Source: a virus
Direction: 5' to 3' (one strand)
Length of the DNA: 64,000 bases
IMG/VR virus record: IMGVR_UViG_3300034105_002260
Position 1 is the first letter of the stretch; each line of letters begins with the position of its first letter. Shown here in pieces: positions 10,958 to 64,000 of this stretch. The notes beneath the pieces were generated by a model. It searched no databases, had not been told where the DNA came from, and worked only from the letters and a program-made list of their open reading frames with translations. Position numbers and translations under genes: made by a program.

Positions 10958-12466
10958 ATGAATACTCAAAATATTTTAAATTTTTATGGTACAAAGTTAG
11001 ACGTTAGGTTGGATAGTTCGGAGTATTACGACTACGAAATGACCAAATTGGATGACGACTATAACAAAGATGTCTTAGATTTAACCACCCCTATAACATA
11101 TACGGGTCTAACAATTAACACCAACTTGACTAATTTTGACTGCGTAAAGTCAACAATTCGACTTATTGAGGATAATGTAAGTGATTTATTAAGTTCTTAC
11201 ATATATTCTGGATTATCAATGACATTGCCATATAATAATTTTGTATCACGTTTTGGAACGGGATTTACTTATACAATTTTAGACAATAATATATTTAAAT
11301 TTACACTTATTAATAATGAAACCCATTATTTTAAAATTTTAGGATATAATCAAACTGGGATAACGTCCTCTATTTTAACGGGATATACTGAATCTCAACT
11401 TATTTCTGGATTTACAACAAACGTTTATAATTGTAGAAAAAATATTATCAATCCATTAGCTTGTTGTCCTCAATCGCCAAGAATTGGTACAAAACCTTGG
11501 GCATTTAAATTTAATGAAGGTTTAGGAACCGACAATTGTTCTCCAATATTAAAAAGAAGAACAGAAAAAGGTTGGACTTTGGATTTTATCTTTAATAGAA
11601 ATAATCTTCCTTGGAGTGCGGGTAGTACATTTTACTATATTGGAGTAAGAGGTGAAAACGATACATATGACTACGCCGATAACAATCTTTCTTTTCAGTT
11701 TACCTCAGATAGAAGAATTAAATGGGTTGCACATCACTATTCTGGTTATTGTGGAACTAGTACATACCAAGAAAGTTTTTACGTTGCTAGTGGACAAACA
11801 CCTCAATTATGTACAATAGACCCCGTAAAAGACTTTAATGTTACAATTGTTTTTGACCGTTATAAAAGATATACCGATTGTAATTTAGAGAATGATGGTG
11901 GTTGGAATGATATGATAGGTTATAGAATTAACCCATATCAAGATATTGTTTATACTGCGGTTACGTCAACTCAACTAGCGATTTGGGATGAAAATGAAGT
12001 ATTATCCAAACAATGGGCAGACGAACAACAAAGAAGGTTGGGGATATTAAAAATATACATTAATGGACGACCAATTTACAAATTAGAAAATTGGGAGGAG
12101 GTTATACCATCTGAAAGAGGGGTTCAACCGTTTATACAATCTTGGGGTGGGGGAACAGGATTAATGAATAACATTCACAATGGTGTTTGTTGTTTTAATA
12201 TGAAATCAATAAAATATTATGAGGAACCGTTAGATTTTGTTCACGTTAGACATAATTTTTTAATGAGATTAAATAACTATGATTTTTCAATATGTGGAGA
12301 TGTGTGTTATGATAATGTTTCAGGTATGACTATTACACCAACACCTACACCAATAGCAACTAGTACCCCAACACCAACTCCTACATCAACCACCACTTCC
12401 ACTAATACACCAACACCTTTACCGACTAGTACACCAACTATAACGCCTACACCGACACCTATATAA
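10958..12466 (+). CDS. Virion protein with LamG/concanavalin-like domain and C-terminal Thr-Pro tail
   Basis: LKIYING..., IKYYEEPL pattern, (TP)n C-terminus; start moved to 10958, behind the promoter motif. Confidence 0.6.
   Translation: MNTQNILNFYGTKLDVRLDSSEYYDYEMTKLDDDYNKDVLDLTTPITYTGLTINTNLTNFDCVKSTIRLIEDNVSDLLSSYIYSGLSMTLPYNNFVSRFGTGFTYTILDNNIFKFTLINNETHYFKILGYNQTGITSSILTGYTESQLISGFTTNVYNCRKNIINPLACCPQSPRIGTKPWAFKFNEGLGTDNCSPILKRRTEKGWTLDFIFNRNNLPWSAGSTFYYIGVRGENDTYDYADNNLSFQFTSDRRIKWVAHHYSGYCGTSTYQESFYVASGQTPQLCTIDPVKDFNVTIVFDRYKRYTDCNLENDGGWNDMIGYRINPYQDIVYTAVTSTQLAIWDENEVLSKQWADEQQRRLGILKIYINGRPIYKLENWEEVIPSERGVQPFIQSWGGGTGLMNNIHNGVCCFNMKSIKYYEEPLDFVHVRHNFLMRLNNYDFSICGDVCYDNVSGMTITPTPTPIATSTPTPTPTSTTTSTNTPTPLPTSTPTITPTPTPI
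12330..12463 (+). repeat. Low-complexity Thr-Pro repeat
   Basis: TITPTPTPIATSTPTPTPTSTTTSTNTPTPLPTSTPTITPTPTPI. Confidence 0.9.
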
Positions 12467-12486
12467 GTTTAAACTATTTATAACAT

Positions 12487-20310: not shown

Positions 20311-20311
20311 A

Positions 20312-21845: not shown

Positions 21846-24686
21846 ATGGCAAATTCAAACAGAGTATTTGTTTCTCCAGGTGTCTACACATCAGAGAAAG
21901 ATCTAACATTCGTAGCTCAAAGCGTCGGGGTAACAACTCTTGGTTTAGTCGGTGAAACCTTAAAGGGTCCAGCCTTCGAACCAGTTCTAATAAGTAGTTT
22001 CGACGAATTCAAAACATATTTTGGACCAACTTCACCTTCAAAAGACGGTGTTGGTAACCCGAAATATGAATTACCGTATGTAGCTAAGTCGTACTTGCAA
22101 GAGTCAAACCAATTATTCGTAACAAGAGTATTGGGTCTTACAGGATACAAACCTTTCAAAACATTCGGTATTAAGACATTAGGTGGTATCACAGTAAATA
22201 AGAGTCAAACTCCTACTTCTACTGGGTTCACATTAACTCCAACCGTAACAGGTATTACAGGAAGTACAGTTTATACTGAACTTTCCACTAAAACATCTGT
22301 GGATGGTACAACAATAACAAGTTATATCACAGATAATTTCGCTGGATTTGGTACAGGACAAACAGGACAATGGTTTGTTATCGGTCTTGTTCCAAGTTCA
22401 AGTGTTTCTGGATTAAGTGGTACTGAGGTTTCTTCTCCATTAAATGGTACAAATAGAGCCAATTCATATAACAATAAAGAATGGTTCAACGTATTTTACA
22501 ACGATGGAGCAACTATAAACAGTGTTTATTCATATCTTTTTGTTTGGAATGGTACAGCTTTTACTGGAACTAAATTTATATGGACAGCAACTTTAAATAC
22601 TGACTATGATAATATAGTAGTGGCCGCTTTAAGGTCAAGAGGTAAATACGTTGGTCAAACATTAACACACGAAGTAACAGCAAACACTGGTGTTACAATT
22701 TCAAGTGTTGGTACCTTGGCTAAAAATGTATTCTCAGAATTTACAATAACAACCGCAGGATTAAATAGTGGAACTAAATCATTCACTTGTTCATTAGATA
22801 CAACATCTTCAAAATACATTACAAAAGTATTAGGAAGTGACGTGTTTGATAAATCAACTGAAGATTACGCGGTTTATGTTCACGAGGTATATCCAAAATT
22901 ATTAAAACACGCTTACGAGAAAGGATTAGTAAGAGGTGTTAGTTCAACAATCGATTATAATCTTGACGGAACGAATTTCTTACATCAATGGGATACCACA
23001 ATTTCTCCAATGGTTGTATCTGAGGTTCGTGGTGGTAAAGTTACGGATTTATTCCAAGTTCAGACAATTTCTGACGGTGAAGCCGCTAACTTCCAAGTTA
23101 AAATAATGATTCAAAACATTAACATTGATTCTGGTGAGTTTGATTTAATCGTAAGAGATTTTAACGATACTGATGACAATATGGTAGTAATTGAAAAATT
23201 CACAAGATGTTCAATGAATCCAGATTTACCAGGTTACGTCGCAAGAAAAATAGGTACTTCTGATGGTGAGTTTGAATTACGTTCAAAATACATTATGTTA
23301 GTTATGGACGCAAATCACCCAACAGATGCTTTCCCTGCAGGTTTCAAAGGTTTCTTAACTGACAACGCGTTCTCAGGGTCAACTTTGGGAAGTACAATTT
23401 ATAAAACTGATTATCTTGCAGCTGGAGACGTAATTTATTACGAATCAGATGGTACACCAGTATTGTCTAACGGAGATAAAGTAAGAAAAGTATCTTTAGG
23501 TCTTTCTTCTCAAGTTGGTTTCGATAAAGATTTGTTTAAATTCAAAGGAGCGGACGCAAGTGGTGAGTCTTTTGGATTCCACTTATCTTCAAACGCGGCT
23601 GCGATAACTGGGACATCATTTAAATGTACTCCATATGATTTAGAAGGTACAGATAAAGGATTGTTAGAAACTAGTGCATATCGTAAATTTACATTCGCGG
23701 TATATGGTGGTAGAGATGGTTGGGATATCTATAGAGATGTTAGAACTAACGGAGACGCTTACATTTTTGGTAAAAGTACATATGTAAGTGGTTATACTAC
23801 TAATAGTGGTGTATTCAGTAATACAGTAGGAAACTCTGATTATTACGCTTACTTAGATGGTATTAATACCTTCTCAAACCCTGAAGCTGTGGATATTAAC
23901 GTATTTGCGACTCCAGGTATTAACTTCTCAGATCACAGTTCTTTAACTACTCAAGCAATTGATATGGTTGAAAACGAAAGAGCGGATTCTCTATATATTA
24001 TTGGAGCTCCGAACAACCCAACAACAGAAGGTGTTATTGGTGATCTTGATACAGTTTCTTTAGATACAAACTACTCAGCAACATATTGGCCTTGGATTCA
24101 AGTAAGAGATACAGATAATGCAACTCAATTATACATCCCACCAACAGGTGAGGTTGTTAAGAACATTGCTTTAACTGATAATGTGTCTTACCCTTGGTTC
24201 GCAGTCGCTGGTTATTCAAGAGGTTTAGTAAATGCAATCAAAGCATCTAAGAAATTAACTTTAGATGAGAGAGATGACCTATATGCTAACAGAATTAACC
24301 CAATTGCGACATTCTCTGATACTGGTACTATAATTTGGGGTAACAAAACTCTTCAAGTTAGAGAATCAGCTTTAGATAGAATCAACGTAAGAAGATTACT
24401 ATTAAGAGCAAGAAAATTAATATCTGCCGTAGCGGTTAGATTATTGTTCGAGCAAAACGATGAACAAGTTAGAAACGAATTCTTAAGATTGGTTAACCCA
24501 ATTCTTGAGTCAATTAAAAAGGAAAGAGGTTTATATGAATTCCGTGTAACGGTTTCAAATGACCCAGAGGATATCGATGCTAACACATTGAGAGGTAAGA
24601 TTTACGTTAAACCTACTCGTTCTCTTGAATTTATTGATTTAGAATTCATAATTACCCCAACAGGGGCTTCATTTGAGAATATCTAA
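21846..24686 (+). CDS. Contractile tail sheath protein
   Basis: VSPGVYTSEKD, GPAFEP, PWFAVAGYSRG, RINPIATF, WGNKTL, RINVRRLL, KPTRSLEFI. Confidence 0.97.
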   Translation: MANSNRVFVSPGVYTSEKDLTFVAQSVGVTTLGLVGETLKGPAFEPVLISSFDEFKTYFGPTSPSKDGVGNPKYELPYVAKSYLQESNQLFVTRVLGLTGYKPFKTFGIKTLGGITVNKSQTPTSTGFTLTPTVTGITGSTVYTELSTKTSVDGTTITSYITDNFAGFGTGQTGQWFVIGLVPSSSVSGLSGTEVSSPLNGTNRANSYNNKEWFNVFYNDGATINSVYSYLFVWNGTAFTGTKFIWTATLNTDYDNIVVAALRSRGKYVGQTLTHEVTANTGVTISSVGTLAKNVFSEFTITTAGLNSGTKSFTCSLDTTSSKYITKVLGSDVFDKSTEDYAVYVHEVYPKLLKHAYEKGLVRGVSSTIDYNLDGTNFLHQWDTTISPMVVSEVRGGKVTDLFQVQTISDGEAANFQVKIMIQNINIDSGEFDLIVRDFNDTDDNMVVIEKFTRCSMNPDLPGYVARKIGTSDGEFELRSKYIMLVMDANHPTDAFPAGFKGFLTDNAFSGSTLGSTIYKTDYLAAGDVIYYESDGTPVLSNGDKVRKVSLGLSSQVGFDKDLFKFKGADASGESFGFHLSSNAAAITGTSFKCTPYDLEGTDKGLLETSAYRKFTFAVYGGRDGWDIYRDVRTNGDAYIFGKSTYVSGYTTNSGVFSNTVGNSDYYAYLDGINTFSNPEAVDINVFATPGINFSDHSSLTTQAIDMVENERADSLYIIGAPNNPTTEGVIGDLDTVSLDTNYSATYWPWIQVRDTDNATQLYIPPTGEVVKNIALTDNVSYPWFAVAGYSRGLVNAIKASKKLTLDERDDLYANRINPIATFSDTGTIIWGNKTLQVRESALDRINVRRLLLRARKLISAVAVRLLFEQNDEQVRNEFLRLVNPILESIKKERGLYEFRVTVSNDPEDIDANTLRGKIYVKPTRSLEFIDLEFIITPTGASFENI

Positions 24687-45480: not shown

Positions 45481-45487
45481 TAAAATT

Positions 45488-46465: not shown

Positions 46466-46477
46466 AAATAGTATAAG

Positions 46478-49446: not shown

Positions 49447-51279
49447 ATGGCTAAAAAAATATCATACGCAACTAGAGATTTTGCGGGATTAAGACAAGAG
49501 TTAGTAAATCTAACAAATGATTACTATCCAGATTTAATAAAAAATACTAATGACGCATCTATATTTTCTGTGTTATTAGACTTGAACGCGGCTGTGGCGG
49601 ATAATCTACACTTCCATATTGATAGAGTATGGCAAGAAACAATGTTAGATTTCGCTCAACAGAGACAATCTCTTTTTCATATTGCCAAAACATATGGTTT
49701 AAGAATACCTGGAAACAGACCCTCAGTTGCCTTATGTGACTTTTCAATAAATGTACCAGTGGCGGGTGATAAGGAGAAAACTGAATACTTGGGTCTATTA
49801 AAGGCGGGAGCTCAGATATCAGGAGGAGGTCAGATTTTTGAAACATTAGAAGATATTGATTTCTCTAATCCATTTAACAATAAAGGTGAACCAAATCGTT
49901 TAAAGATACCTAATTTCGACGGTAACAATAAATTAGTGTCATATACCATTACTAAGAGAGAAGCGGTCGTAAACGGAGTCTCAAGGATATATAGAAGAGT
50001 TGTAACTGAATTAGATCAGAAACCTTTCTTGAAACTTTATTTACCTGAACAAAACGTATTAGGTATTGTGTCGGTTATACATAAAGAAGGTACATCGTTC
50101 GGGTCAAATCCAACATCATCAGAATTTACATCATCAACTAATAAATGGTATGAAGTTAAATCTTTAATGGAAGATAAAGTATTCATTAAAGACTCAACAA
50201 AAATATCAGATAAAGATAATTTCATACCAGGAACATACCTTTCAGTTAGTAATAAATTTATGACTGAATATACCCCAGAAGGATATTATTCGATGACATT
50301 TGGTTCTGGAACTGTGGACCCAATGGCTAATTTAGATAATTTCATAACGGGTAATTTAAAAGTTAGTTTAGGTTCTTATTTGAATAACGTATCGTTAGGT
50401 GCGGTACCTAAGTCAAACAGTACAATGTTTGTAAAATATAGAATTGGTGGAGGTAAAAACTCAAATCTAGGGGTTAATGTTATTAATAGTATTGACAACA
50501 TTGAGTTTAATGTAAATGGTCCAGTTTCAACTGTAAATTCACAAGTTATTCAATCGTTAAGAGTATCAAATGTAACTCCGGCAATAGGTGGGGCAGATCA
50601 ACCAACAATTGATGAAATTAGAAATATGATTTCTTACAATTTTGCGGCACAAAATAGAGCAGTAACGTTAAATGATTACAAATCGGTAATTGAAAATATG
50701 CCACCCACATTTGGCGCTGCGGCTAAGGTTAATGTGATGGAGGAAGATAATAAGGTGAAGATTAAATTATTGTCTTACGATTCCGACGGAAACCTAACTG
50801 ACGTAGTTTCTAACACTTTAAAAGATAATGTAACCGAATATATTTCACAATATAGAATGATTAATGACTTTGTTGAGATTCAAAGTGGTGAGGTTATTGA
50901 CCTTGGATTGGAGATTGATGTTGTAATTGATAGAAACGAATTAGAGTCAGATGTCATTAAATCAATAATTGAAAAAACAATTTCATATTTTGCAATTGAA
51001 AAAAGAAAAATGGGAGACCCATTGTTTACGGGTGAATTGTTAAAAGAAATTGGATCAACAAGTGGAGTAGTTAATGCGGTTGATGTTAGAGTTTTTAATA
51101 AAACAGGTGGTGAATATTCACAAGCTGAGGTGTCACAATCATACAAAACACCAGAAACAAAAGAGATTCTACAAGCGGATATGACCGTTTATATGAAGTC
51201 AAATCAGATATTCCAAATTAGATTTCCAAATAAAGATATTAAAGTTAGGGTTAAACCTCTCACTTCGACTACATTTTAA
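49447..51279 (+). CDS. Baseplate wedge gp6/J-like protein
   Basis: RDFAGLRQEL, GGADQPTIDEIR, AQNRAVTLNDY. Confidence 0.92.
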   Translation: MAKKISYATRDFAGLRQELVNLTNDYYPDLIKNTNDASIFSVLLDLNAAVADNLHFHIDRVWQETMLDFAQQRQSLFHIAKTYGLRIPGNRPSVALCDFSINVPVAGDKEKTEYLGLLKAGAQISGGGQIFETLEDIDFSNPFNNKGEPNRLKIPNFDGNNKLVSYTITKREAVVNGVSRIYRRVVTELDQKPFLKLYLPEQNVLGIVSVIHKEGTSFGSNPTSSEFTSSTNKWYEVKSLMEDKVFIKDSTKISDKDNFIPGTYLSVSNKFMTEYTPEGYYSMTFGSGTVDPMANLDNFITGNLKVSLGSYLNNVSLGAVPKSNSTMFVKYRIGGGKNSNLGVNVINSIDNIEFNVNGPVSTVNSQVIQSLRVSNVTPAIGGADQPTIDEIRNMISYNFAAQNRAVTLNDYKSVIENMPPTFGAAAKVNVMEEDNKVKIKLLSYDSDGNLTDVVSNTLKDNVTEYISQYRMINDFVEIQSGEVIDLGLEIDVVIDRNELESDVIKSIIEKTISYFAIEKRKMGDPLFTGELLKEIGSTSGVVNAVDVRVFNKTGGEYSQAEVSQSYKTPETKEILQADMTVYMKSNQIFQIRFPNKDIKVRVKPLTSTTF

Positions 51280-51333: not shown

Positions 51334-54300
51334 ATGATACAAAAACATAGAATTTCAACGAATATTGGTCAAGACCAAATTGTAAAAGTCGAACTTAAAC
51401 AAGATTTCGATTTATTAGAGATTTTGTCTTTAAAATTTACACAAAAAGAGATATACACATCTCTTTGTGCTGATTATGGTGTGGTTTGTGGTAGAGTTAG
51501 TGTAAATAACGGTTTTGGTGTACCAAACGCAAGAGTTTCCATTTTTATCCCCTTATCCTCAGAAGACGAATCGGACCCCGTAATTTCCGCTTTATATCCA
51601 TATAAAGAGATTGGTGACCAGAACGATGATGGATATCGTTACAATCTATTACCATCAAGAAAACAACATTCAGGACATTCCCCAACAGGAACATTCCCCG
51701 ACCAACGAGATATTCTTACTAGAGAAGAAGTTTTAGAGGTGTATGAGAAATATTACAAATACACAGTTAAAACAAACGACGCAGGTGATTTTATGATTTG
51801 GGGAGTTGGTTTAGGTGAACAAAGAATTCACGTAGATGTTGACTTATCCGATATGGGATGTCAATCATTGTCACCATACGATTTAATGTACGAAGGAATT
51901 TCCGCGGAAAAATTTCAAAACGCATATACATATATGTCTTCTAACAATTTGGAGAGTCTTCCTCAAGTTGTTTCTTTTGATAAAACAATTGAAGTTTATC
52001 CATTTTGGGGTAATGAAGACTTATGTCAAATTGGTTTAACAAGAACAGATTTCGATTTAAAAGATAAAGGAATTAGAATTGAACCATACGCGGTGGTGAT
52101 GGGAGGTACATTTACCGATTCAGGTAAAGACGCACTAAGAGTTCAATGTAATGTTGATAATCAACAAGGTGAGAAATGTCGTCTAACGACAATGAAAGGA
52201 GACATCGAAGCAATTAGATTTACGGGAGAATTTGAAAAAGACACCAATGATAACCCAGATTTCAATAGACCAATTTTAGAAAAATTAGAAATTGACCAAA
52301 CTATTGATGAATTTGGTAGATTCTTTTTTAGGGTGCCGATGAACACTTACTACATAACAACAAATGAATTTGGTGAAGTTGTGGAATCTAAAAATAAAAA
52401 CGTAGGTATCCCAACAGAATCGACTTATCGTTTTAGACTTTCATTAAATGAAGATACGGGAGGAAGAAATAGATTTACAGGTAAAATATTAGTACCAAAT
52501 ATTAGAGAATATCACATTAGTGACACGGCGTATAATGGATTATATAGTACTATCGACCCAAAATCATATTCATTTAGTACATCTATTAATGATTACCCAT
52601 CTGCGGCGATTAATGAAATATTAGGAAAAAGTACCGACGCAATTGCTGATGGTAAAAGAGGAGTACCACAAGATTATTTTTATAAATTTAGATATGGTAG
52701 AACATATACTGTTGGACAATTTATTAACAAATATTATAATGACGGAGCTTTAGGTAAATTATTTAGTTTCTTTAAAAGAGATAGAAGAGAATCGTTCCTC
52801 GGCATCAAAGAAATTTGGCCATCTGAAAGTAGTGATTGCTCAAGTACTATTAATTATTTCCCAATAAACGATGCTGTTAGAAATCATAGATTTAATTTCT
52901 TTGTTTTAACAATTTTAAGTTACGTTGATTTTATTGGATTAAGAATTCAATTATTTTTTAAAGAATTAAACTGTTTAATACAATTTGGAGCCGCTGGTGT
53001 ATTTGGTATTTTTAATAATTCAGCTGCCGCTAAACAATTTGCAAGAGCGAAAGAAACACAATTCAAAAGTATTTTTAAAGTTAATTTAATTATATACCCA
53101 GATTGTTATGATTGTGAAGAAGATAATACAAATGGTGAAGTTGTAATTAACGCGGACCCAGTCAATATTGCGGCAGTAACTGGAGGTACCGCTGGTGTTA
53201 ATTACATTTCCGCAACAAGTTCACCATTTAGTGTTTCAGAAAGATGGTCAGCAACAAGAACCAATTGTGACAAATATGATTTAGTTAATACAAGTGCCAC
53301 ATCACAAGTAGTAACATATACTGATTGTGATGGGGCTACAGGTCAAACGGCAACACTTGCTGCGGGATCTTCATTATCTTTATGTGTTAAAAACGGAACC
53401 ACCCCAACAATACCAGTTTCAGTAACTTCAACATTCACATCGTTAGGATGTTCAGGTGCTGCTGGGTATCAACCAAATGACTCACTATATTTCTACCTAA
53501 CAGTAAACGGGCAACCAGGATATGAAATTACGAATGTCCCAACATATAACTCATCACCAAAAGATGGTGATTATCTCTATCAACGATATGTGATGGAAAT
53601 TGACGTATTAGGTGGTGCGAGTGAATACATAGCAATTGGAGTTGGTCAATCATATACAATTATGTATGATGGTTCAACTAGTAGGTGGAAAATTAAAGAT
53701 GCGTACAAATCTATTGCCGATACGATAGCTGCGGCGTACAACCTACCATATGATCAACCAGTAAGTGGAACTGCACATCCTGAACAAGGTAGAGTTGTGA
53801 TTAAAAAATTATGGTATGTTGATAACGTACCTATTAGTGCAACAACCATAAATGAAAATGAAGAAGGTTGTGCAAAATATGATTACATAATTGAAGATAA
53901 ATTAGGTAGATGGGGTACTAGTATGAGTCTCCAAGGTTTAAAATTACCATTAACTGGTGCAACCGCAACATATGAAACATATGCTGAAGCTTATAATGCT
54001 ATGAATGGTATAAGAGCACCAAGAAATTCATTTTACGGTACTCCACCATTTTATGATCAATTAGATTTAAACTATAACACTACAATTATCGCCGCTAATG
54101 TACCAGATTGTGAAACGCCACCAAATTATAATATTGGTGCGGTTGCTTCGGTGTACGCTAAATGGCCAACTAGTGATAGTAGAAATTTTAGAAATGGAGA
54201 TTCAAGATGCGTTTATCGTGGAGAATATGCGGGACAAGTTAAAAAGAAAGGACCATATTTTGTTGATGAGTTTTTAACGAGAGACGGAACATTAAGTGGT

Positions 54301-55563
54301 TGGTCTGAATTTAGAGATGGTGTTTATACCATTGTACCGTTAGCAGGAAGAACTGGAGAACTATTGTCTTCATATAGAAGAAGAAAATTATTTGGCAAGT
54401 TAATGTGTGGTGGAGTAATATCATACACATTCGCCAACTCTTGGTTAAATGGAGCACTTTACTTTTTTCAATTTATGAGAAGGGGTGCGAATAGATTCTG
54501 TAAAGATTGTTTATTTAAGAAAACAGATTTAGACGGAAGTATTCATTATTATTATAGATCAACACCGTATAACTCTTCTTTTAGTGGATACGAGTCACAA
54601 TATAATGGTTCACAATTAGATGATGAGGGTAGGACATATAACGCAGTTTATAGTGGTAAAACAAAAGGATTTTACGGTAGTGTAAGAGTGGGTAATAGTA
54701 GAAGAGAAATTAATTTCCCAACTACAATTATTGATTTAGGACCAAGAACAACTTGGATAGATGAAGTTTGTGTTGACCCCGCTTTAGATGTTAATTGTTC
54801 AATAACAAGAAGTATTGGATCAACATCATATAAAGGTATTGACGACTTAATGGAGTATGTTATTCAATCAAAAGAATTAAAAGAAAGAGGTCGTTTAGAT
54901 ATTCAAGATTTGTTTGATAGTCGTGGAGATGGATTAATTGATGGAGACATTGCTCAATTATTAAACTTTAACACGCAAACAGGAATATATCCATTTGAAT
55001 ATGAAGAATTAGATTCACCATATAGTTCACTTTATGCCACTTATTTTGATGGTAAAGGTCCAGTGGGTATTGATTTTGTTTATAGTGAAGATGATCCCGA
55101 TACCGCCGTGGTTGAAGCAAATGGTTTATTAATTAGAAAATGTATTAATGAAAAAGGAAGATTGGGGGATTACTCTCAGAAAGTTCCTTATTATATGTGG
55201 GACACAAAAGGACACGGATTTGGTGAAAACGCAAATGGTGGAGAATCTCAAAATTATTACGTTGCTAAAATATATAACCAAAGAATACAAGAAATAAAAT
55301 CAAATTTAAATTTAGATTCAACACTTGCAACTTTAGATGATTTTTATCTTTCACCAGAGGCTTCTTACGTGTTACCTCCAATACGTGATTGCGTTGAGGT
55401 GTCAGGAGTAAAGTCAAAAAGTAACGATAACTATAAAGAATATACCGTAGGTGGAGTAACAAGACATTTAATGGAAATTGGGTCACCATTTCACTTTATG
55501 TTTGGATTAAAAAAAGGAAACACCGCTTGGGATAAATTTATTGAAAGCTTTGGACCAAAATAA
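51334..55563 (+). CDS. Large virion/baseplate protein with N-terminal carboxypeptidase-regulatory-like domain and Cys-rich modules
   Basis: GVVCGRVS...VPNARVSI, KTNDAGDFMI; late motif at 51320-51327. Confidence 0.6.
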   Translation: MIQKHRISTNIGQDQIVKVELKQDFDLLEILSLKFTQKEIYTSLCADYGVVCGRVSVNNGFGVPNARVSIFIPLSSEDESDPVISALYPYKEIGDQNDDGYRYNLLPSRKQHSGHSPTGTFPDQRDILTREEVLEVYEKYYKYTVKTNDAGDFMIWGVGLGEQRIHVDVDLSDMGCQSLSPYDLMYEGISAEKFQNAYTYMSSNNLESLPQVVSFDKTIEVYPFWGNEDLCQIGLTRTDFDLKDKGIRIEPYAVVMGGTFTDSGKDALRVQCNVDNQQGEKCRLTTMKGDIEAIRFTGEFEKDTNDNPDFNRPILEKLEIDQTIDEFGRFFFRVPMNTYYITTNEFGEVVESKNKNVGIPTESTYRFRLSLNEDTGGRNRFTGKILVPNIREYHISDTAYNGLYSTIDPKSYSFSTSINDYPSAAINEILGKSTDAIADGKRGVPQDYFYKFRYGRTYTVGQFINKYYNDGALGKLFSFFKRDRRESFLGIKEIWPSESSDCSSTINYFPINDAVRNHRFNFFVLTILSYVDFIGLRIQLFFKELNCLIQFGAAGVFGIFNNSAAAKQFARAKETQFKSIFKVNLIIYPDCYDCEEDNTNGEVVINADPVNIAAVTGGTAGVNYISATSSPFSVSERWSATRTNCDKYDLVNTSATSQVVTYTDCDGATGQTATLAAGSSLSLCVKNGTTPTIPVSVTSTFTSLGCSGAAGYQPNDSLYFYLTVNGQPGYEITNVPTYNSSPKDGDYLYQRYVMEIDVLGGASEYIAIGVGQSYTIMYDGSTSRWKIKDAYKSIADTIAAAYNLPYDQPVSGTAHPEQGRVVIKKLWYVDNVPISATTINENEEGCAKYDYIIEDKLGRWGTSMSLQGLKLPLTGATATYETYAEAYNAMNGIRAPRNSFYGTPPFYDQLDLNYNTTIIAANVPDCETPPNYNIGAVASVYAKWPTSDSRNFRNGDSRCVYRGEYAGQVKKKGPYFVDEFLTRDGTLSGWSEFRDGVYTIVPLAGRTGELLSSYRRRKLFGKLMCGGVISYTFANSWLNGALYFFQFMRRGANRFCKDCLFKKTDLDGSIHYYYRSTPYNSSFSGYESQYNGSQLDDEGRTYNAVYSGKTKGFYGSVRVGNSRREINFPTTIIDLGPRTTWIDEVCVDPALDVNCSITRSIGSTSYKGIDDLMEYVIQSKELKERGRLDIQDLFDSRGDGLIDGDIAQLLNFNTQTGIYPFEYEELDSPYSSLYATYFDGKGPVGIDFVYSEDDPDTAVVEANGLLIRKCINEKGRLGDYSQKVPYYMWDTKGHGFGENANGGESQNYYVAKIYNQRIQEIKSNLNLDSTLATLDDFYLSPEASYVLPPIRDCVEVSGVKSKSNDNYKEYTVGGVTRHLMEIGSPFHFMFGLKKGNTAWDKFIESFGPK

Positions 55564-55564
55564 T

Positions 55565-56254
55565 ATGTGGAAAGATTTATTTAAAAAAAGAAAACCGAAT
55601 CATTTAATTATATATGTTTTATATAATAAGGAAGAGTCATTGTTATATAAAATACTATCTAAATTAACATATAGCGTTGGACCATTCAATACTATCGAAG
55701 AATGTATTGAAGGTGTTAAATCGTTTATAAAAAAACATCCTGAAAAATTAAAACAAATGAACATTACAAGTTTTGGTTCAGGAAAAAATTTGGTACAAAC
55801 AAATAGTAATAAAGAAAAGATATATGAATTGGTCGATACTTTAAAACCATTAATGTCAGATGAAACTAAAATAATGTTTACAACTTGTTTTAGTGGGGTT
55901 TCACATAGAAAAGTGGTTGAGATGTCAGAATACTTAGATGGTATTGAAATTGCGGCAATGAATAAATCATATTCACTAAATGGTGATATGACAATTTGTA
56001 AATGTAAAGAAAAGGGATATAGTAAAAGTGTGGTTGAATCACTACCACAAAGTAGAGATGGTATTAGATATGATGAAAATCAAATTGTCAACATTGTAAG
56101 AAGAAATGTTGGGGAATTGGTTGATTGGAAAACATCGGGTATGGCATATGAATACAATAAAGTTGTAAGGGAAAATAATATCTGTAGAGTTGATAAACAA
56201 CCATACACATTATTAAAAAGTATAAGAAACTATATTTTTAATATTCAAAGTTAA
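55565..56254 (+). CDS. Hypothetical protein, weak DUF4347/caspase-fold resemblance
   Basis: MNITSFGSG...IMFTTCFSG; start taken at MWKDLF. Confidence 0.5.
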   Translation: MWKDLFKKRKPNHLIIYVLYNKEESLLYKILSKLTYSVGPFNTIEECIEGVKSFIKKHPEKLKQMNITSFGSGKNLVQTNSNKEKIYELVDTLKPLMSDETKIMFTTCFSGVSHRKVVEMSEYLDGIEIAAMNKSYSLNGDMTICKCKEKGYSKSVVESLPQSRDGIRYDENQIVNIVRRNVGELVDWKTSGMAYEYNKVVRENNICRVDKQPYTLLKSIRNYIFNIQS

Positions 56255-58068
56255 TGATAAAGAAAAAAATAATATTACCAACTAAGAAATTCTTCAAGGC
56301 AGATGAAGAAGACATTAACATTCGTGTTAATTTGGATGAAACCGAAGCATTACTTAGACAAGGTGATAAGGATATTATATTGGATATTGCTCAACTTTTT
56401 GATGATGAGAGAAATGATAGTAACAATTATAAAATTCACGGAAAATTAAAAATGGTTTTCAGGAATTTATATACTGGTACCACAACATATGCACCACTTA
56501 AAAGAAATCTTTATTTAAATGGTGATGGTACGGAAGCGTTAACAACTTATCCGGGTTCATTACCATATAACGAATTTGCGTTCCTTAGAAAAGATGTGTT
56601 AAGAGAAGTTAACATCCCACAAACAGGGTCAACTTTAACCACATTCACACAAAATATACAACTTACAGGTACCACATACACAGGACACACAACAACAACT
56701 TCAATAGATGCTCCATATAAAAATTGGAATGTTTATTTAAGTTATGCTTACGATAAAAATTCAGACCACCCAATGGCGTACACCTTAACTGGAGGTACAA
56801 CTGGATTAACGTATAATTTTACAGCAAAAGACGGTATCCCATTTAGGGTGGTGGATAATGGATCACAATATGTATTAACATCACCTGTGGAACACGGAAT
56901 GTCACAAGGTGAATATATCACCATTTCAACCACAGGTAATACTTTTTATTCAACAATTGGAACAGGAACAACAACAAACCTAACAGGTAGAACATTTTAT
57001 ATTGACTCCGTTGGTAACGAAGTACATAATTCAGAAAAATACGTTGTTAATTTAATAAAAACAGATTTTAAAACTGGATCAATATTAGGTAATGTTGTTT
57101 TTGGTAAAAGATGTATTGATAGGGATAATATAACGGGAACTACGTCAGAATATTATGTACACAAGTTAAAAACCTTAACAGATAACAACGATTATATTTT
57201 AGATAAACTTGGGTTTGAAACACCAATTTGGGAAGAAGAAAGAAAGTTAGTTTTTGAAACAAGTGCAGGTGATAATGATTATTTAGTGGAATTAAACAGA
57301 ATGGAATCTGTTTTATATGATTTTAAGGAACCATTAAATTTAACAGGAGTAACAAATAATTTAGGTTATACCCCAACAGAAGTTTTCTTATCTGTTATTT
57401 TTAGAAATGGAAACGGTTATTTTGATTACCCACCAAAGGTAGGTTACAAATTTCATTTTCATAACACTTGGATTGATAATCACTTCGTAGGATCAGGTTC
57501 AACCGAAACTGGAATACCAAGTACAGGTTTCACAAGTAATATTGGAACCACAGGTTTCACTAGAGGATTGGAATTACCAATTGGAACAGTATTAACTGGT
57601 GATTTTATTGAATATAACAGACAAGAATTAAAAGAAAGAATTGTTAGTCCCGCTTTTCATAAGTTCAATATTAAGTCCACAATTTTTAATCACGGACAAA
57701 ACACAGCATTAACATATGCGGGACAAAGCCCTGTAGGGTTATACTATCAACCATATTATAAAGTTAAATTAAGACAATTGTCACCATATATTGAAACATC
57801 AAATACTGATGACATTTACAATTTACCAGAGAACGCATCTTATTTTGAAGATGAAGGTTTATGGAAATGGAGAGATGTCTATGATATGGGATTTGTTGAT
57901 ATTGAGGGTAATGGTATAGATTATCCATTTATTAATAACATTCATTACGTAAAAAACGATATTAATTTCTATTTAAGGAATGAGGAGTATTATACCAATA
58001 AGGAAGATGGTATAACAAGTTTTAATAATAAAAACAACTTAAACGGAACAAATCTTACTGACTGTTAA
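56254..58068 (+). CDS. Virion structural protein (TGxT-rich)
   Basis: Position in the baseplate operon; Thr/Gly-rich. Confidence 0.65.
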   Translation: MIKKKIILPTKKFFKADEEDINIRVNLDETEALLRQGDKDIILDIAQLFDDERNDSNNYKIHGKLKMVFRNLYTGTTTYAPLKRNLYLNGDGTEALTTYPGSLPYNEFAFLRKDVLREVNIPQTGSTLTTFTQNIQLTGTTYTGHTTTTSIDAPYKNWNVYLSYAYDKNSDHPMAYTLTGGTTGLTYNFTAKDGIPFRVVDNGSQYVLTSPVEHGMSQGEYITISTTGNTFYSTIGTGTTTNLTGRTFYIDSVGNEVHNSEKYVVNLIKTDFKTGSILGNVVFGKRCIDRDNITGTTSEYYVHKLKTLTDNNDYILDKLGFETPIWEEERKLVFETSAGDNDYLVELNRMESVLYDFKEPLNLTGVTNNLGYTPTEVFLSVIFRNGNGYFDYPPKVGYKFHFHNTWIDNHFVGSGSTETGIPSTGFTSNIGTTGFTRGLELPIGTVLTGDFIEYNRQELKERIVSPAFHKFNIKSTIFNHGQNTALTYAGQSPVGLYYQPYYKVKLRQLSPYIETSNTDDIYNLPENASYFEDEGLWKWRDVYDMGFVDIEGNGIDYPFINNIHYVKNDINFYLRNEEYYTNKEDGITSFNNKNNLNGTNLTDC

Positions 58069-58862
58069 TGAAAATATTAAGAAACGATAGCGACATTAAA
58101 ATTCTTTTACAAAAAGAACAGAATTTCAGAACTGACGCTGGATGGGAAGGTGATTTGCAACAAATTGAAACTCAAACCCTTAAAAAGATTATTAACGTTA
58201 TTGAAAATTACGAAACAGTAAGATATGTGCACAACCCATATACTGGTTCAACGTTACCAACAGGGTTAAAACAAACAGACATTTGGTACCAATTTTATTT
58301 TTTAAGTGGAGGAACATATGTTCAAGATTATGACCCAACAGGTTTATCATCAAAAGAAAATGTAGAAATGTTAGCACAATTTAAAAATAGTTTTTTTAGG
58401 TTGGAATTTTTTAAAACACCCAACAACGTGGCTCCAGATAGAACAAATAGAAGATTAGTTTTTGCTAAGAATTTATCATTACCATTAGGTGAGAAATATT
58501 TTTATGAAGATTTAGGTAATTTAATCTTTAAACCAGTTTTTACTGGTTCAAACTACAGAAACTCAGAAAATATGTATCTATTTTGGTTTCAAGATGACAC
58601 CGCATTAAATGAGACGACATTAATAGGTAATACGTTTTGGATTTCTGCAAAATTCTATAATGCGGAAGACGCTTCTATTTTAGATTTTGTTAAAACCGAC
58701 ATCGGATCTGCTGAAGTTAAAGAATCAAACGATATGTACTATAAGATGATAATTGATAGAACAAATTATTCTTACGAAGTATATCGTTATAATAATGGAA
58801 CTCAAGGGTCTAGAATTGGAGAAAGTAATGACCCAATAAAATTCTATCAGAAAAAAGGATAA
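58068..58862 (+). CDS. Virion structural protein
   Basis: TAATG-coupled within the baseplate operon. Confidence 0.6.
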   Translation: MKILRNDSDIKILLQKEQNFRTDAGWEGDLQQIETQTLKKIINVIENYETVRYVHNPYTGSTLPTGLKQTDIWYQFYFLSGGTYVQDYDPTGLSSKENVEMLAQFKNSFFRLEFFKTPNNVAPDRTNRRLVFAKNLSLPLGEKYFYEDLGNLIFKPVFTGSNYRNSENMYLFWFQDDTALNETTLIGNTFWISAKFYNAEDASILDFVKTDIGSAEVKESNDMYYKMIIDRTNYSYEVYRYNNGTQGSRIGESNDPIKFYQKKG

Positions 58863-59782
58863 TGGAACCAAATAAATACGAAATATTAAAACAAACCGGA
58901 ATTACATTCAATATACCACTTTATTTAGAAAGTAGTGTGGATGAGATGGGTGTTATGGTTGGATTTGACGGGGAGATACAACAAGTGGACCAAATCGTTA
59001 ATTTTACCTATTCAGGTGCAACAGGGTCTAAAACAGTTACATTATATTCCACAACAAATCCAGATAAATTAAGAAAAATAGTTGACCAAGTGTATTCCAT
59101 CAATTGGGGGGACGGTTCGGTAAGTGTCCCATTTCCAGTTAATAAAAATATTCCAAACTCTTCTTTTCCCTCCACAGGACATACATATACTACAAATGGT
59201 ACATATGATGTTTCAATAACATTATCAGCTCCCTGGGGAACTCAAATAGTTAAAAAACAAATTACAGTACCAATTAACAATCCAAATACAATTAGTAATG
59301 AATTTGGATCATTTAGTGGGGTGACGATGCCAATTGAAATTGATTACATAAATAATTTAGACAATTCAACAGGATTAACGGGAAATGCCACCATTAAATT
59401 TATGGGTATAGGTAAAAGTAGAATTGAAGAATTAAGGAAGTACGGTCAAACAACTTTTAACGGGGTAACAACGGGTTCTACGGACGGTTCTAGTTGGAGT
59501 GGATATACTTTAGATAATCTTTATTATCGTGACTTTACAGATGGTTATACGATGATTACGGGTAGTACGTCTAGTTTTACCAAAGAAGAAGTGGTTAATA
59601 GAATGGTTACAAGAAATGAACATTTTTTAGGATTTATTGATGAGCCAACAATTTATTCTGACATTTTTGTTGAGAGAGGAAAACAAGGTGTGATGGAGAA
59701 AAATTTAAGATTAGGAGAAATTGACAACATAGGTGAAGTAGACATATACGGAAATGGATATTTTAATGTGAGAAAACAATAA
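58862..59782 (+). CDS. Virion protein with PKD domain
   Basis: INWGDGS...HTYTTNGTYDVSITL PKD signature. Confidence 0.75.
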   Translation: MEPNKYEILKQTGITFNIPLYLESSVDEMGVMVGFDGEIQQVDQIVNFTYSGATGSKTVTLYSTTNPDKLRKIVDQVYSINWGDGSVSVPFPVNKNIPNSSFPSTGHTYTTNGTYDVSITLSAPWGTQIVKKQITVPINNPNTISNEFGSFSGVTMPIEIDYINNLDNSTGLTGNATIKFMGIGKSRIEELRKYGQTTFNGVTTGSTDGSSWSGYTLDNLYYRDFTDGYTMITGSTSSFTKEEVVNRMVTRNEHFLGFIDEPTIYSDIFVERGKQGVMEKNLRLGEIDNIGEVDIYGNGYFNVRKQ

Positions 59783-59806: not shown

Positions 59807-60724
59807 ATGGCAGTAGGAAGTTACGGAATAATTAGACCAGCAGATGTATCCCCAGCGGACGTAGATGTTTTTTATCACTACGTTCCAAATAGAACATCAA
59901 CTGCGGAGGTAACCTTAAAAAAGTTAAACTCACAAGAAGTCCTTGCTCCAGTTTTTCATAACGGAGATACCACAGAAAGTACGGACGCTCCAAATGTCGA
60001 AATTTTAGGTGGATTATACAACTTAACACTAACTTCAGATGATTTTAGTGATTTAGGAATATATACACTTCATATTAGACCAAAACAAATCAGAACCTCA
60101 ATTACGGATTGTGGTATTTTAGCTTCATTACCATCGGTTAGAGGGTTGGTTATCGATTTAAGTAACGTTCCATCTGCTGACAGAAACAAATTTACACCAC
60201 AAGGATTGGTTGGATATCGTATTGAGTATTTAAATTCAAACGATAACACCAAAGTTACAAATTTTTATAGAATAGTAACGTCATCTTTTTATTGTACACC
60301 AGTTGTTTCAAACTTAACTAGTACAACTCAAAAGGCGATTAGATACCAATATAGTGTTGCGGCTTCAAATTTATTATTTTTAACTGTAACACCATCTTCG
60401 GCACCATCAAGTAGACCAAATGTGGTTCCATTTATTGGTCAACCAGGACAAAACATCATTTTAACCAATACATTCTTTAACCCAACAACTGTTGAAGTGG
60501 AAATGGTTGAACACGATTCGTCAACATTAGCATACGCATTATACGGTAACCAAAGTAAGGCAGTGTCTTCAGGTATCTATACAATTTACGATAACAATAA
60601 CAATATCTTCAAACAATACAATCTTTATGAAGTTAAGGACGAGTTTAACGAAACCTTATTCGAGATTAGAGAAAACAAGACAGATATTGATGAGACATTA
60701 AATTTCGATGATATTACACAATAA
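59807..60724 (+). CDS. Virion structural protein
   Basis: 305-aa ORF with late motif at 59789-59796. Confidence 0.6.
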   Translation: MAVGSYGIIRPADVSPADVDVFYHYVPNRTSTAEVTLKKLNSQEVLAPVFHNGDTTESTDAPNVEILGGLYNLTLTSDDFSDLGIYTLHIRPKQIRTSITDCGILASLPSVRGLVIDLSNVPSADRNKFTPQGLVGYRIEYLNSNDNTKVTNFYRIVTSSFYCTPVVSNLTSTTQKAIRYQYSVAASNLLFLTVTPSSAPSSRPNVVPFIGQPGQNIILTNTFFNPTTVEVEMVEHDSSTLAYALYGNQSKAVSSGIYTIYDNNNNIFKQYNLYEVKDEFNETLFEIRENKTDIDETLNFDDITQ

Positions 60725-63700
60725 TGGCAAGAAGAAAAGTTCCAAGTCAAGTTGCGACAGGTGCAGAAACATTTAGCGATAGCTTAGTCGGTAGACAAAT
60801 TACCGACGGTACTAGTCAATTGACTAATACGAACTTTGCCATTGACCGTATCATACCAGAAAAAGATAGTAAGAAATTTAGAACTAGTCAATTTTCAGAT
60901 TTTTTAACGTTAGACGATTTAAAAGAGGAAACGGATTCCCCAACCACATCAACAAAAACCAAAGAAGAGAGAAAAAAAGAAATTAAATTTAAATCTTCTA
61001 AAACTAATGCTGCGGTTTCTACTTTCGGTTCATTAAGAAGTAGATTACTTGCATCGATTACACGAATTATTAAGAAATTCCCAGCGACATCACTTGTTGA
61101 TTCCGAGAGTTTAATTAAGAATTCAATTTATACTGCGTACAACATATCTTACGATTTTAATCAGAACACAACGGAATTTACTGTTGATTTTGCAATGATT
61201 TATAATCCGTTAGATGTTTCATTTATAAAACCAGAGAGTAATGTAATACCAACCACCGATAATGAGGTTAGAAATTTTTATTCATCATATAAAAAATATG
61301 TAATAGAAGTTTCAGGTACAACTTATCCTGTATTAACATATAGTGAACCAAATTCAAATAACGAAGTTTCATTTAAAGTTTTTGGTAAACCATTTGGAGT
61401 CTTATCAACTTACAATTTTAATTATTTAATTAGACCAAACGACGGTATAGTTGAAGAATTCTATATGGGGTTAGACGATTTGGAAGAAACACTCCTAAAC
61501 AGAGAATCTTCACCTAAATTCAAAACCTCATTCAAAGTACCAAGAGATAGTTTCGAAGGAGACAAAACAGAAATAACTGACGTTGAGGTTGCTTGGCCAA
61601 CATCTAAAGATGGTTGGAATATTAAAATTGTCGGTTTAGAATATGAAAATTATCTAACCCAATTAATTGATTTATCTGATGAAATAGACAATTACAAATC
61701 AAACCTTTTTATAAGGTTTATGAGTGCTCCTCAATTGTATGAGTTCGATAGTGACGATAAAAAAATAGAATCAATATTTCAATTATACGGTCAAAATTTT
61801 GACAAGGTAAAAAAATACATATCGAACATTGCAAATATGCGTAATGTTTCGTACGATGGTATTAATAACGTTCCTGACGTATTATTAAAAAACTTAGCAA
61901 ATACGTTAGGTCTATCAACAGTTAGTCTTTTAGATGAAAAACAAATTGATGAGTTATTATACGTTAGACAAGATTCCCAATACGAGGCGGTTAACCTTGG
62001 TACAAACATTGTTGACGCTGAATATGAATTTTACAGAAGATTATTAGTCAATTTAGTTGAATTATACAAATCAAAAGGTACAAGAAAATCTATTGAATTT
62101 TTCTTACAATTCTTAGGTGCTCCTGAACCAATGATTAAAATAAACGAATACGTTTATAAAGTAGTTGGGTTCCCTAAGTCTTTAGATTTAGAGTCGGATA
62201 TTTGGGATGTTATTGAAGGTACAAAAGTTAATACAACTCTAACCTTCGATGAAGACACATTTTCATATATAACAGGAACTACAACATCAAAAACAACTTA
62301 CGATAGAAAAGAATATCCAGTAATTGAAAACACAATCTTACCTAGACGAGCGTATGACGATGTAACTGATATGTTCTTCCAAAAAGGTGCGGGTTGGTAT
62401 GAGAAAACATTAGACCATAGATCTTCAATGATTTTGGATAAGGAATTGTCAAAAGGAACTTATGTTAATGGTGAATTCCAATTAACAGGTAGAACCAAAA
62501 CAATTAAAACCAAATCAAAAGATTTTACATATGGTGAGGATTATTTCGATGTATTCAGAACTTTACCTGGTTTAGATACGGGATTTGATATTGTTAATCA
62601 AATTGATAATAAGAAATCACACCCAACAGATGACGGTTCAGTTTATTTATTAAATAGAAAAAATATTAGTATTAACCTATCGGCAGCTCAAACTCTTGAT
62701 TATGACATTTATAGAAAATCTAGAGAATTAAGTTTGTCATTTGGTAGTGTAACGTTAACACCACAAACGGGGGTAACCTTTGCTGAATTTTTAAATAAAA
62801 CATTAAGTGAACAAATTAAAAATTCAAACACTGTAAAGTACAAAAAGAATTATATTATTCTTGAGGACATTTATAGGGATTATATTACAAATACAAGTTT
62901 CACACCATATAATCTTCCCGATATTACGGAGTTCATCAATAAGATGAGTCCATATTGGACACAAGTAATCGACCAATTTATACCTGCAACCACATTATGG
63001 ATGGGAGGTAATTTAATTGAGAATGGTTTATTTGGTCGTTCAAAATATCAATACAAATTCGGATGTCAACCAAGAGAATTTATCGAGGAGTTATATCCAG
63101 ATTTTGAAACGGCAATTGAAGAAGATTTAGAGACATTACTTGGAGATGAAGATAACTTTAGAGGATTATTAAATTCAACAGGAGTTACTTATTATCCAAT
63201 AATCGAAATAGATGGGGTAGTTTATACTGGTAACGCTGTTGTTGTTAGCGGAATTGTTAACACATCAACTAGCGCTAAATTATTTGATGAATGGATTTTA
63301 AATGACTGTACTTGTTACTTTAGTGGTACCGCTTTATTAAATGGACCAACAAGAACATATACACATAAGTTACCATTAATTTGTGACTATAAACAATATA
63401 TTAATCCAGATGTTACCAAAATAAAAGAACTTTGGAGACAATCATTAGTTACGTTAATTAATTTTATTAATTCGAACACTGATATAGATGAGGCTGGGTG
63501 TATTGACACATATGAACCATATGCTTTAGCCGCAAGATGGCCTTGTTATAGTGGATGTACTTTAAGTGGTACAACAAAATATGGTACATCACCAAACACA
63601 TTACCAGGACCATATCAATGTGTTGGGGTAGATAAGAAATTAATTGATCATCAGTTTTTTACTGATACTGACGGTGTTGAAAAAATTAAATTCACATCAA

Positions 63701-64000
63701 TAAAACACGGTCCAAACGACTGTTCGGTTGAGGAATATTTTGATTATAAATTTAAATCATTAAACGACCCACAATTAACAAATTGTGGAATTGAGTTGGA
63801 CTTTTCAAACGAATGCCCCAACGGTAAATTAACAACATATGTGTTGGGTAGTGAGGTTGATTGTAAAATCAAAGGTGATGTAACTATTAAAATTACAGGT
63901 ACCACCGTAACAGTACAAAGTGGGTCAACAACCAATTGGCCAGTCTATGTTCATAAAAATTGTGAGATTGGAGTTAATCCATTGTCAAATTATTCATTAT
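60724..64000 (+). CDS. Large baseplate wedge protein (gp7/P2 gpI-like domain), truncated by window edge
   Basis: ATG at 60724 (TAATG), MARRKVPSQ...; contains LKNLANTLG and ELYKSKGTRKSIEFFL motifs; absent from ORF track, consistent with no in-frame stop. Confidence 0.75.
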   Translation, partial: MARRKVPSQVATGAETFSDSLVGRQITDGTSQLTNTNFAIDRIIPEKDSKKFRTSQFSDFLTLDDLKEETDSPTTSTKTKEERKKEIKFKSSKTNAAVSTFGSLRSRLLASITRIIKKFPATSLVDSESLIKNSIYTAYNISYDFNQNTTEFTVDFAMIYNPLDVSFIKPESNVIPTTDNEVRNFYSSYKKYVIEVSGTTYPVLTYSEPNSNNEVSFKVFGKPFGVLSTYNFNYLIRPNDGIVEEFYMGLDDLEETLLNRESSPKFKTSFKVPRDSFEGDKTEITDVEVAWPTSKDGWNIKIVGLEYENYLTQLIDLSDEIDNYKSNLFIRFMSAPQLYEFDSDDKKIESIFQLYGQNFDKVKKYISNIANMRNVSYDGINNVPDVLLKNLANTLGLSTVSLLDEKQIDELLYVRQDSQYEAVNLGTNIVDAEYEFYRRLLVNLVELYKSKGTRKSIEFFLQFLGAPEPMIKINEYVYKVVGFPKSLDLESDIWDVIEGTKVNTTLTFDEDTFSYITGTTTSKTTYDRKEYPVIENTILPRRAYDDVTDMFFQKGAGWYEKTLDHRSSMILDKELSKGTYVNGEFQLTGRTKTIKTKSKDFTYGEDYFDVFRTLPGLDTGFDIVNQIDNKKSHPTDDGSVYLLNRKNISINLSAAQTLDYDIYRKSRELSLSFGSVTLTPQTGVTFAEFLNKTLSEQIKNSNTVKYKKNYIILEDIYRDYITNTSFTPYNLPDITEFINKMSPYWTQVIDQFIPATTLWMGGNLIENGLFGRSKYQYKFGCQPREFIEELYPDFETAIEEDLETLLGDEDNFRGLLNSTGVTYYPIIEIDGVVYTGNAVVVSGIVNTSTSAKLFDEWILNDCTCYFSGTALLNGPTRTYTHKLPLICDYKQYINPDVTKIKELWRQSLVTLINFINSNTDIDEAGCIDTYEPYALAARWPCYSGCTLSGTTKYGTSPNTLPGPYQCVGVDKKLIDHQFFTDTDGVEKIKFTSIKHGPNDCSVEEYFDYKFKSLNDPQLTNCGIELDFSNECPNGKLTTYVLGSEVDCKIKGDVTIKITGTTVTVQSGSTTNWPVYVHKNCEIGVNPLSNYSL

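Follow-up and report, generated by a model that had tools for sequence, protein, structure and literature searches.

As summarised in PMC12619734, which cites Freeman et al. 2023, mycobacteriophages use phage-encoded glycosyltransferases (GTs) to glycosylate C-terminal extensions of their capsid and tail-tube subunits, and Chlorovirus PBCV-1, as described in PMC5852040 and PMC4691112, glycosylates its capsid with virus-encoded enzymes that act independently of host pathways. Here we consider a 64,000-nucleotide stretch of viral DNA (IMG/VR record IMGVR_UViG_3300034105_002260, the whole of which we call the window) from an uncultured aquatic jumbo phage, in which the outward-facing tail, baseplate and fibre proteins carry the tetrapeptide Ser/Thr-Gly-x-Thr ([ST]-G-x-T) at up to ~14 times the frequency expected by chance. 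By all the comparisons below, [ST]-G-x-T behaves as a selected, lineage-specific short linear motif that acts at the level of protein, and its clade is a large one of aquatic Bacteroidota jumbo phages. We tentatively favour, with rather more doubt than conviction, the reading that it is an O-glycosylation acceptor or recognition site for the phage's own conserved GTs. Three relatives served for comparison: G004 (335,630 bp, complete, and syntenic along the full length of the window), G001 (288 kb) and the distant G007.

As the mycobacteriophages are described in that source, the likeness lies in phage-encoded GTs, shown there and proposed here, that coat virion proteins made in the cytoplasm. 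The systems differ in host phylum and GT families; moreover, the candidate tetrapeptide is here scattered over internal loops of the baseplate, the fibres and the inserts of the sheath and is absent from the tube. A virus that brings its own machinery, here a candidate one, for glycosylating structural proteins recalls PBCV-1, although PBCV-1 is a eukaryotic virus and its enzymes are unrelated. The capsid glycans of PBCV-1 are N-linked. General O-glycosylation in Bacteroidota shares the host phylum and the Ser/Thr acceptor; unlike the present motif, however, it is periplasmic and requires Asp at position -1. In our sites Gly is fixed at +1 and position -1 is hydrophobic in 56% and charged in 3%, which bears out the claim of a preliminary description of this DNA that the motif is distinct from the host sequon D-[ST]-[AILMTV].

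Two bacterial systems come closer in their biochemistry. TibC and Aah, of the BAHT family, are cytoplasmic O-glycosyltransferases that modify Ser, not Thr, in short loops of beta-rich substrates, and the mapped site of TibA, Ser-313, lies within ...N-S-G-G-A..., that is, Ser followed by Gly (eLife 2014, PMC4358343). Both the loop context and the Ser-Gly pair agree with our motif; in contrast, Thr is as common as Ser at position 0 here, the carriers are not repeats like the beta-helix substrates of BAHT enzymes, and no BAHT gene is encoded in the window or in the motif-rich G001. The NGT/Agt system of Actinobacillus and Haemophilus is soluble and cytoplasmic, uses the sequon N-x-S/T, and pairs an initiating enzyme with a processive glucosyltransferase; glycopeptides are not accepted by AmGGT itself but are by its Agt homologues, which extend the glucose on them (PMC12159676). 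One open reading frame (ORF) of the window, 2390, is a distant homologue of Agt and AmGGT, at no better than the E value given in Table 1, but the linkage in that system is N-linked and its sequon is different.

The [ST]-G-x-T motif in the window

The carriers, named here by the first coordinate of their ORFs, are listed in Table 1 with the counts expected from whole-protein shuffles. Under the more stringent local shuffles, in which residues were permuted within 12- and 20-residue windows and local composition was thus kept, the excess remained at p<0.001 for ORFs 56254, 58862, 10937, 60724 and 33514 and was weaker for the sheath (p 0.01), ORF 58068 (p 0.02) and ORF 51334; that of ORF 28448 was not significant in these shuffles. 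The enrichment that the preliminary description had proposed to check by composition shuffling therefore survives both procedures and is limited to outer virion proteins. Its hand counts (14 of the 17 [ST]G dipeptides in the 604-amino-acid protein, eight motifs in the 306-amino-acid protein, seven each in ORF 10937, the sheath and ORF 33514, none in NrdA and two in PolB) prove exact, and the many motifs it saw in ORF 60724 are there; the labels 'PKD' and 'LamG-like' that it gave to carriers find no support in Pfam.

The signal is tightly positional. In the carriers 48% of [ST]G dipeptides have Thr at position +3, compared with 12-14% for Thr at +2 and +4, and in other proteins the share is 7%; Gly at +1 is required, as Thr stands at +3 in 52% of cases with Gly but in only 4-14% with other residues (Met, at 19%, and Thr, at 22%, excepted). 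An unbiased scan of gapped triplets returned TG.T and SG.T as the strongest once (PT)n linkers were set aside, and across the window the forward motif outnumbers its reversed form by 67 to 18 (3.7x) and all permuted controls as well. Codon usage at the sites is mixed, Ser being encoded by AGT and TCN and Thr by all of its codons; the signal is therefore one of protein, and a motif at the level of DNA is ruled out. Duplication fares no better as a source: there is no BLASTP match among the carriers at E 0.01 and no internal repeat links them, so that the short linear signal proposed at the outset stands.

The motif sits on outward-facing parts of the virion, namely sheath insertions, the peripheral baseplate, fibres and, weakly, the major capsid protein. 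Pfam places the sheath domains at residues 660-936, and all seven sheath motifs lie outside this conserved C-terminal core; their assignment to the N-terminal part thus holds, but their excess reaches a p of only 0.01 in local shuffles. It would be wrong to say, as had been said, that the motif saturates the virion proteins: the tube, the gp6-like and gp25-like proteins and the virion proteins at 59807 and 20312 have none, and neither do the portal, terminase, protease and the protein in the tape-measure position, while the enzymes of the window are not enriched. Most of the distal baseplate proteins are without a Pfam or PHROG family match.

Beyond the core, a hydrophobic residue or Ser is often found at +4, Asn and Thr are over-represented at +5, and charged residues are depleted from -2 to +7; the usual form is hydrophobic-[ST]-G-x-T-(hydrophobic/S)-(N/T). 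In G004 (124971-126746) and G001 (30900-32663) the gp23-like major capsid protein holds 3-4 [ST]GxT where ~0.5 would be expected, so that the capsid surface may be marked as well, more weakly; the capsid gene lies outside the window. Separately, a Pro/Thr/Ser linker run is found at 12359-12403 of the window (residues 475-489), at the C-terminal end of the motif-rich ORF 10937, and, when the carriers of the window are pooled with those of G004, (PT)n tracts lead all other triplets in over-representation by a wide margin; they are a possible second class of O-glycan acceptors.

Table 1. Coordinates of motif carriers, motif-free virion proteins and glycosyltransferases in the window, with observed [ST]GxT counts and the counts expected from whole-protein shuffles (aa, amino acids)
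Coordinates	Strand	Feature	[ST]GxT	Expected	z	Remarks
56254..58068	+	604-aa baseplate-block protein, densest carrier	14	0.99	13.7	Family not known
58862..59782	+	306-aa baseplate-block protein	8	0.62	9.7	
60724..63999	+	Distal protein of >1092 aa	9	1.03	8.0	Runs off window; 18 in G004 orthologue
10937..12466	+	509-aa protein	7	0.75	7.3	C-terminal (PT)n run; 8 in G004 orthologue
33514..39372	+	1952-aa tail or baseplate protein	7	1.2	5.4	Five clustered at residues 963-1128
21846..24686	+	Tail sheath	7	1.7	4.2	All N-terminal to residue 660
51334..55563	+	1409-aa protein in gp7 position, weak carrier	4			Local-shuffle p 0.04; 11 in G001 and 7 in G007 orthologues
58068..58862	+	264-aa protein, weak carrier	2			7 in G004 orthologue
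49447..51279	+	gp6-like inner baseplate wedge	0			Internal negative control
25022-25510		Tube	0			
48993-49445		gp25-like protein	0			
6227..7456	-	GT-B glycosyltransferase, GT4-like, core gene				Candidate reader/initiating enzyme
2390..3460	-	GT related to Actinobacillus Agt/AmGGT				PDB 8xsg, E 1.8e-7
1612..2397	-	GT2-like GT-A glycosyltransferase				PF00535, E 1.6e-5, above cut-off

The motif in relatives, control phages and a megaphage

The window has a G+C content of 32% and encodes a T4-like tail and baseplate module (sheath, tube, hub, gp25-like and gp6-like wedge proteins), replication genes for PolB, helicases, SSB, a UvsX-like protein and NrdAB, and a minus-strand block with PhoH, a dUTPase-like gene, two sigma-70-like genes and three GTs. 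The 604- and 306-amino-acid proteins each have ~1000 metagenomic homologues, on contigs of up to 354 kb, and the name of one homologue points to the GOS ocean survey. The lineage may be that of the 'moraphages' of PMC12619734, which are large and aquatic, have predicted Flavobacteriia hosts and share four core GT orthologue groups; the likeness is drawn by description only, from the four GTs (1612, 2390, 6227 and a GT60) that G004, G001 and G007 have in common.

Within the clade the motif is retained as a property of the tail and baseplate while individual sites come and go. Eight of the 400 ORFs of G004 are enriched at p<1e-3, where ~0.4 would be expected by chance, and each of them maps to the tail/baseplate block at 143-204 kb; the other 392 hold 110 motifs against 104 expected. 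G001 has 186 motifs against 72 expected, with ten enriched ORFs. Among 121 homologues of the 604-amino-acid protein there are 5-19 motifs per protein, spread over 54 alignment columns, of which a few are 80-95% conserved and many variable. The 306-amino-acid family averages 8.9 motifs per protein, with sites 233, 152 and 213 conserved at 88-100% and one site invariant, and its G007 orthologue, at 32% identity, has 9 of 12. At conserved sites Ser and Thr swap freely at position 0, with an occasional Asn, the Thr at +3 changes mostly to Ser, and x is free; the hydroxyls are what is kept. The signal is weaker in homologues of 25-35% identity, with 1.45 motifs per protein and Thr at +3 in 25% of cases against 7-8% at flanking positions. 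In 80 more distant viral contigs the ratio of observed to expected motifs over the module is typically 2-3, and in one distant contig the 604-like protein has no motif and a distal 1712-amino-acid protein has 12 against 2.3 expected. No motif-free relative was found on long viral contigs with P0250 or P0282 as single queries.

The comparison with G004 also brings out several differences in gene content. NrdB and NrdA (45308-48910 of the window) are only 26-28% identical to the G004 genes in the same place, and the flanking genes are 73-79% identical, which suggests that ribonucleotide reductase was swapped for a different type in one of the two lineages. ORFs 16988-18010 (340 amino acids) and 55541-56254 (237 amino acids, within the baseplate operon) have no homologue in the otherwise fully syntenic G004 and are therefore lineage-specific insertions.

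Outside the clade, five phages lack the signal. The virion proteins of T4 have 18 motifs against 13.9 expected, with Thr at +3 in 10% of cases; the T4-like Flavobacterium phage immuto has 40 against 24.2, with Thr at +3 no more frequent than at +2 or +4 and no ORF at p<0.01; Microcystis phage Mel-JY01, whose sheath is the closest cultured one, has 8 against 7.6; XacN1, which carries a GT60 homologue, has 72 against 70; and phi92 has 34 against 22.5, the positional signal being absent. Thus the motif is general neither to myovirus tail folds nor to Bacteroidota phages.

A sixth genome behaves differently. LR756501, an uncultured phage of 735 kb which we take to have been assigned a Bacteroidetes host, has homologues of only five window proteins: PhoH, the dUTPase, DnaB, NrdA and the GT-B of ORF 6227, the last aligned over its full length at 34% identity (E 8e-61). 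Several of its large ORFs nonetheless carry the same motif in the same hydrophobic context, for example at 25 of 46, 17 of 25, 15 of 21, 12 of 21 and 7 of 8 [ST]G dipeptides, and one of the motif-bearing ORFs has a weak match to a minor-tail PHROG. LR756501 is an independent lineage with the motif, and, by our comparison of gene content, the GT-B is the only unusual gene it shares with the window. The same genome encodes giant proteins of 1664-3487 amino acids (ORFs 399879-410342, 102894-111344, 411185-419344 and 119293-124287; L142-L178) that consist largely of [ST]-G-T repeats, one protein holding as many as 815 [ST]G, and have the look of collagen-type fibre repeats; these were left out of the motif statistics.

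Glycosyltransferases as candidate readers

The three GTs seen in the preliminary description are real: ORF 1612 matches a Pfam GT2 family, ORF 2390 matches AmGGT, a glucosyltransferase of Actinobacillus, and ORF 6227 is a GT4-like GT-B. Their identity to the corresponding genes is 67-72% in G004, 62-67% in G001 and 39-51% in the distant G007, and all three are core genes of the clade. The GT-B falls in virus-only clusters and is 50-68% identical across the clade, remaining at 50-52% in relatives whose 604-like protein is down to ~28%; no homologue of it was found in the motif-negative T4, immuto, Mel-JY01 and XacN1. ORF 2390 has no homologue in 50,697 phage records. ORF 1612 overlaps ORFs 2390 and 914 at its ends, and the end coordinates of ORF 914 and this GT2-like gene meet at 1612, which suggests that the two are co-transcribed; ORF 914 (914-1612) is one of two weak sigma-70-like ORFs, the other at 9667-10161, that flank the GT block on both sides.

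A gene resembling GT60 polypeptide-GlcNAc-transferases (E 1e-59) is likewise kept in G004, G001 and G007, and G004 has more than 12 GTs in total. Two large glycan-synthesis clusters are apparent in that genome (L087:10561-16946 and L098:5267-L099:6022, at 70-77 kb and 285-306 kb), with GT60-like, GT25, GT11, UDP-galactopyranose mutase, TibC-like and GT9 genes, a GT1+FkbM fusion, several methyltransferases and a radical SAM gene; the second also holds a collagen-like fibre gene with an S74 chaperone domain. Since no thymidylate-synthase-like gene was found in G004, a role for the conserved GTs in glycosylating hydroxymethyl-pyrimidine DNA is unlikely.

Not all of these enzymes are plausible readers of the motif. 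The TibC-like protein heptosyltransferase of G004 (PDB 4rap, E 9.5e-51), which like its counterparts in G007 and LR756501 is a close homologue of TibC, is an unlikely one: it is absent from the motif-rich G001 and in G004 is encoded ~7 kb upstream of the collagen-like fibre gene, and it probably has a substrate of its own, the fibre being the more likely. GT60 is also unlikely, as XacN1 has a GT60 homologue and reported glycoproteins (PMC5852040) but no motif. No NGT or GT41 gene turned up, and no search was aimed at NGT/GT41.

A lineage-specific, surface-restricted, hydroxyl-dependent motif with fast turnover of sites is best explained by something that reads it, and we favour the conserved GTs because they are the only candidate readers in view and because the GT-B is the only unusual gene shared with LR756501. 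In such a pathway, [ST]-G-x-T would be the sequon for O-glycosylation by phage GTs in the cytoplasm, with the GT-B of ORF 6227 as the candidate for initiation and the Agt-like 2390 and GT2-like 1612 as candidates for elongation, and the tail and baseplate would end up with an outer coat of glycans. That the clade appears otherwise equipped for protein glycosylation, with its GT60-like and TibC-like genes, speaks for this pathway. What the sequences show is the motif itself, its specificity, its distribution and pattern of conservation, and its co-occurrence with the GTs; any modification of the motif, the nature of that modification as a sugar and the identity of the reading enzyme are inferred.

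Several observations weigh against the glycosylation pathway. The acceptor of the GT-B may be a glycan or a lipid rather than a protein; phi92, moreover, has a GT-B homologue at 28% identity yet no motif. The predicted co-occurrence of motif and GTs is seen throughout the clade and, for the GT-B, in LR756501, but no GT-less relative was found: as every clade member examined has the GTs, co-occurrence amounts to two independent lineages only and is confounded by ancestry, except for LR756501. Motif density also varies at least 3-fold among GT-bearing relatives (in G007, the 604-like protein has one motif and the 306-like protein nine), and cytoplasmic and non-virion proteins do not avoid the motif, so that a promiscuous cytoplasmic enzyme would need further determinants. 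Finally, the hydrophobic residues at -1 and +4 and the position of sites at strand boundaries would equally fit an element of structure.

Alternative explanations and implications

Such a structural micro-element is the alternative that fares best. It would be a tight turn or cap between beta strands that spread in the lineage for the folding or stability of large, beta-rich virion proteins, with no trans-acting reader. In the AlphaFold2 model of the 604-amino-acid protein (predicted local distance difference test score, pLDDT, 75), in which several motifs fall in lower-confidence regions, each of the 14 motifs is found in a loop between strands, at the edge of a strand or in a single helical turn leading into a strand, and a fold search with the model gave no PDB match; the model of the 306-amino-acid protein (pLDDT 58) is too low in confidence for reliable mapping. 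Strand-loop-strand junctions of this kind, or one-turn helices just before a strand, together with the hydrophobic flanks and the depletion of charge, are what a structural element would lead one to expect, as are the sites conserved at 88-100% and the recurrence of one site (Q74) in homologues of 25-35% identity. At an Asx/ST-turn, or a helix capping box with a hydrophobic staple, Asp or Asn can replace Ser/Thr at the cap, and Glu, Asp or Gln is accepted at the third following position. In our proteins, however, Thr follows at +3 in 39 of 73 Thr-Gly but only 6 of 47 Asp-Gly and 6 of 55 Asn-Gly, which is baseline, Val and Ile at position 0 bring no excess either, and the Thr at +3 gives way mainly to Ser, rarely to an acidic residue, and not to Ile or Val. 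The failure of Asp and Asn at position 0 and the retention of hydroxyls therefore speak against a plain Asx/ST-turn or capping box. No excess is seen in the homologous or analogous folds of T4, immuto, Mel-JY01, phi92 and XacN1, nor in the inner virion and cytoplasmic proteins of the same phage, and sites turn over rapidly in variable loops. On balance, we consider a purely structural origin unlikely, though worth keeping in mind.

A reader of some other kind seems to us a still more doubtful proposition. The motif could be phosphorylated or nucleotidylated or act as a phospho-ligand, or it could be the point at which a decoration protein, a chaperone or an environmental polysaccharide docks or adheres; its specificity to lineage, surface and hydroxyl would suit any specific reader, and its density is uncoupled from the presence of GTs within the clade. 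Against this, the window yielded no candidate for a kinase or a reader of any other kind, and the one unusual gene that it has in common with LR756501, the second lineage to bear the motif, encodes a glycosyltransferase. To a mere artefact of composition or low complexity in proteins rich in Thr, Gly and Ser we give almost no credence: the carriers are indeed Thr-rich (10-12%), and the 40 motifs against 24 in immuto exceed composition until Thr at +3 is compared with +2 and +4, when the excess is gone, but local shuffles, positional specificity, the Gly requirement and the reversed and permuted controls all reject it for the carriers.

Glycosylation by the conserved phage GTs thus remains an attractive, if tentative, reading. 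In its fullest form, it would make [ST]-G-x-T the first O-glycosylation sequon to be defined for the virion of a bacteriophage. The sequon would be recognised in the cytoplasm by the virus-specific GT-B family of ORF 6227, would occur in two lineages of Bacteroidota huge phages that are very distant from each other, and would come and go on exposed loops much as N-glycan sites do on the glycoproteins of animal viruses. So complete a picture we regard as somewhat improbable; our literature searches found no description of the [ST]GxT motif.

If the motif is a sequon, the tails of an abundant and widespread clade, represented in aquatic metagenomes by hundreds of contigs, would be coated at sites that can be predicted with glycans made by the phages themselves; the motif is also present in the largest phage record in GenBank. 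The sequon would then be a marker, readable from sequence, of exposed virion surfaces, would supply a testable pair of enzyme and peptide for cytoplasmic glyco-engineering, and would offer a new angle on how phages tune adsorption, stickiness and the evasion of recognition by hosts and grazers. Even without glycosylation, a four-residue, hydroxyl-dependent, lineage-specific surface tag must have either a reader or some structural rationale, as yet unknown.

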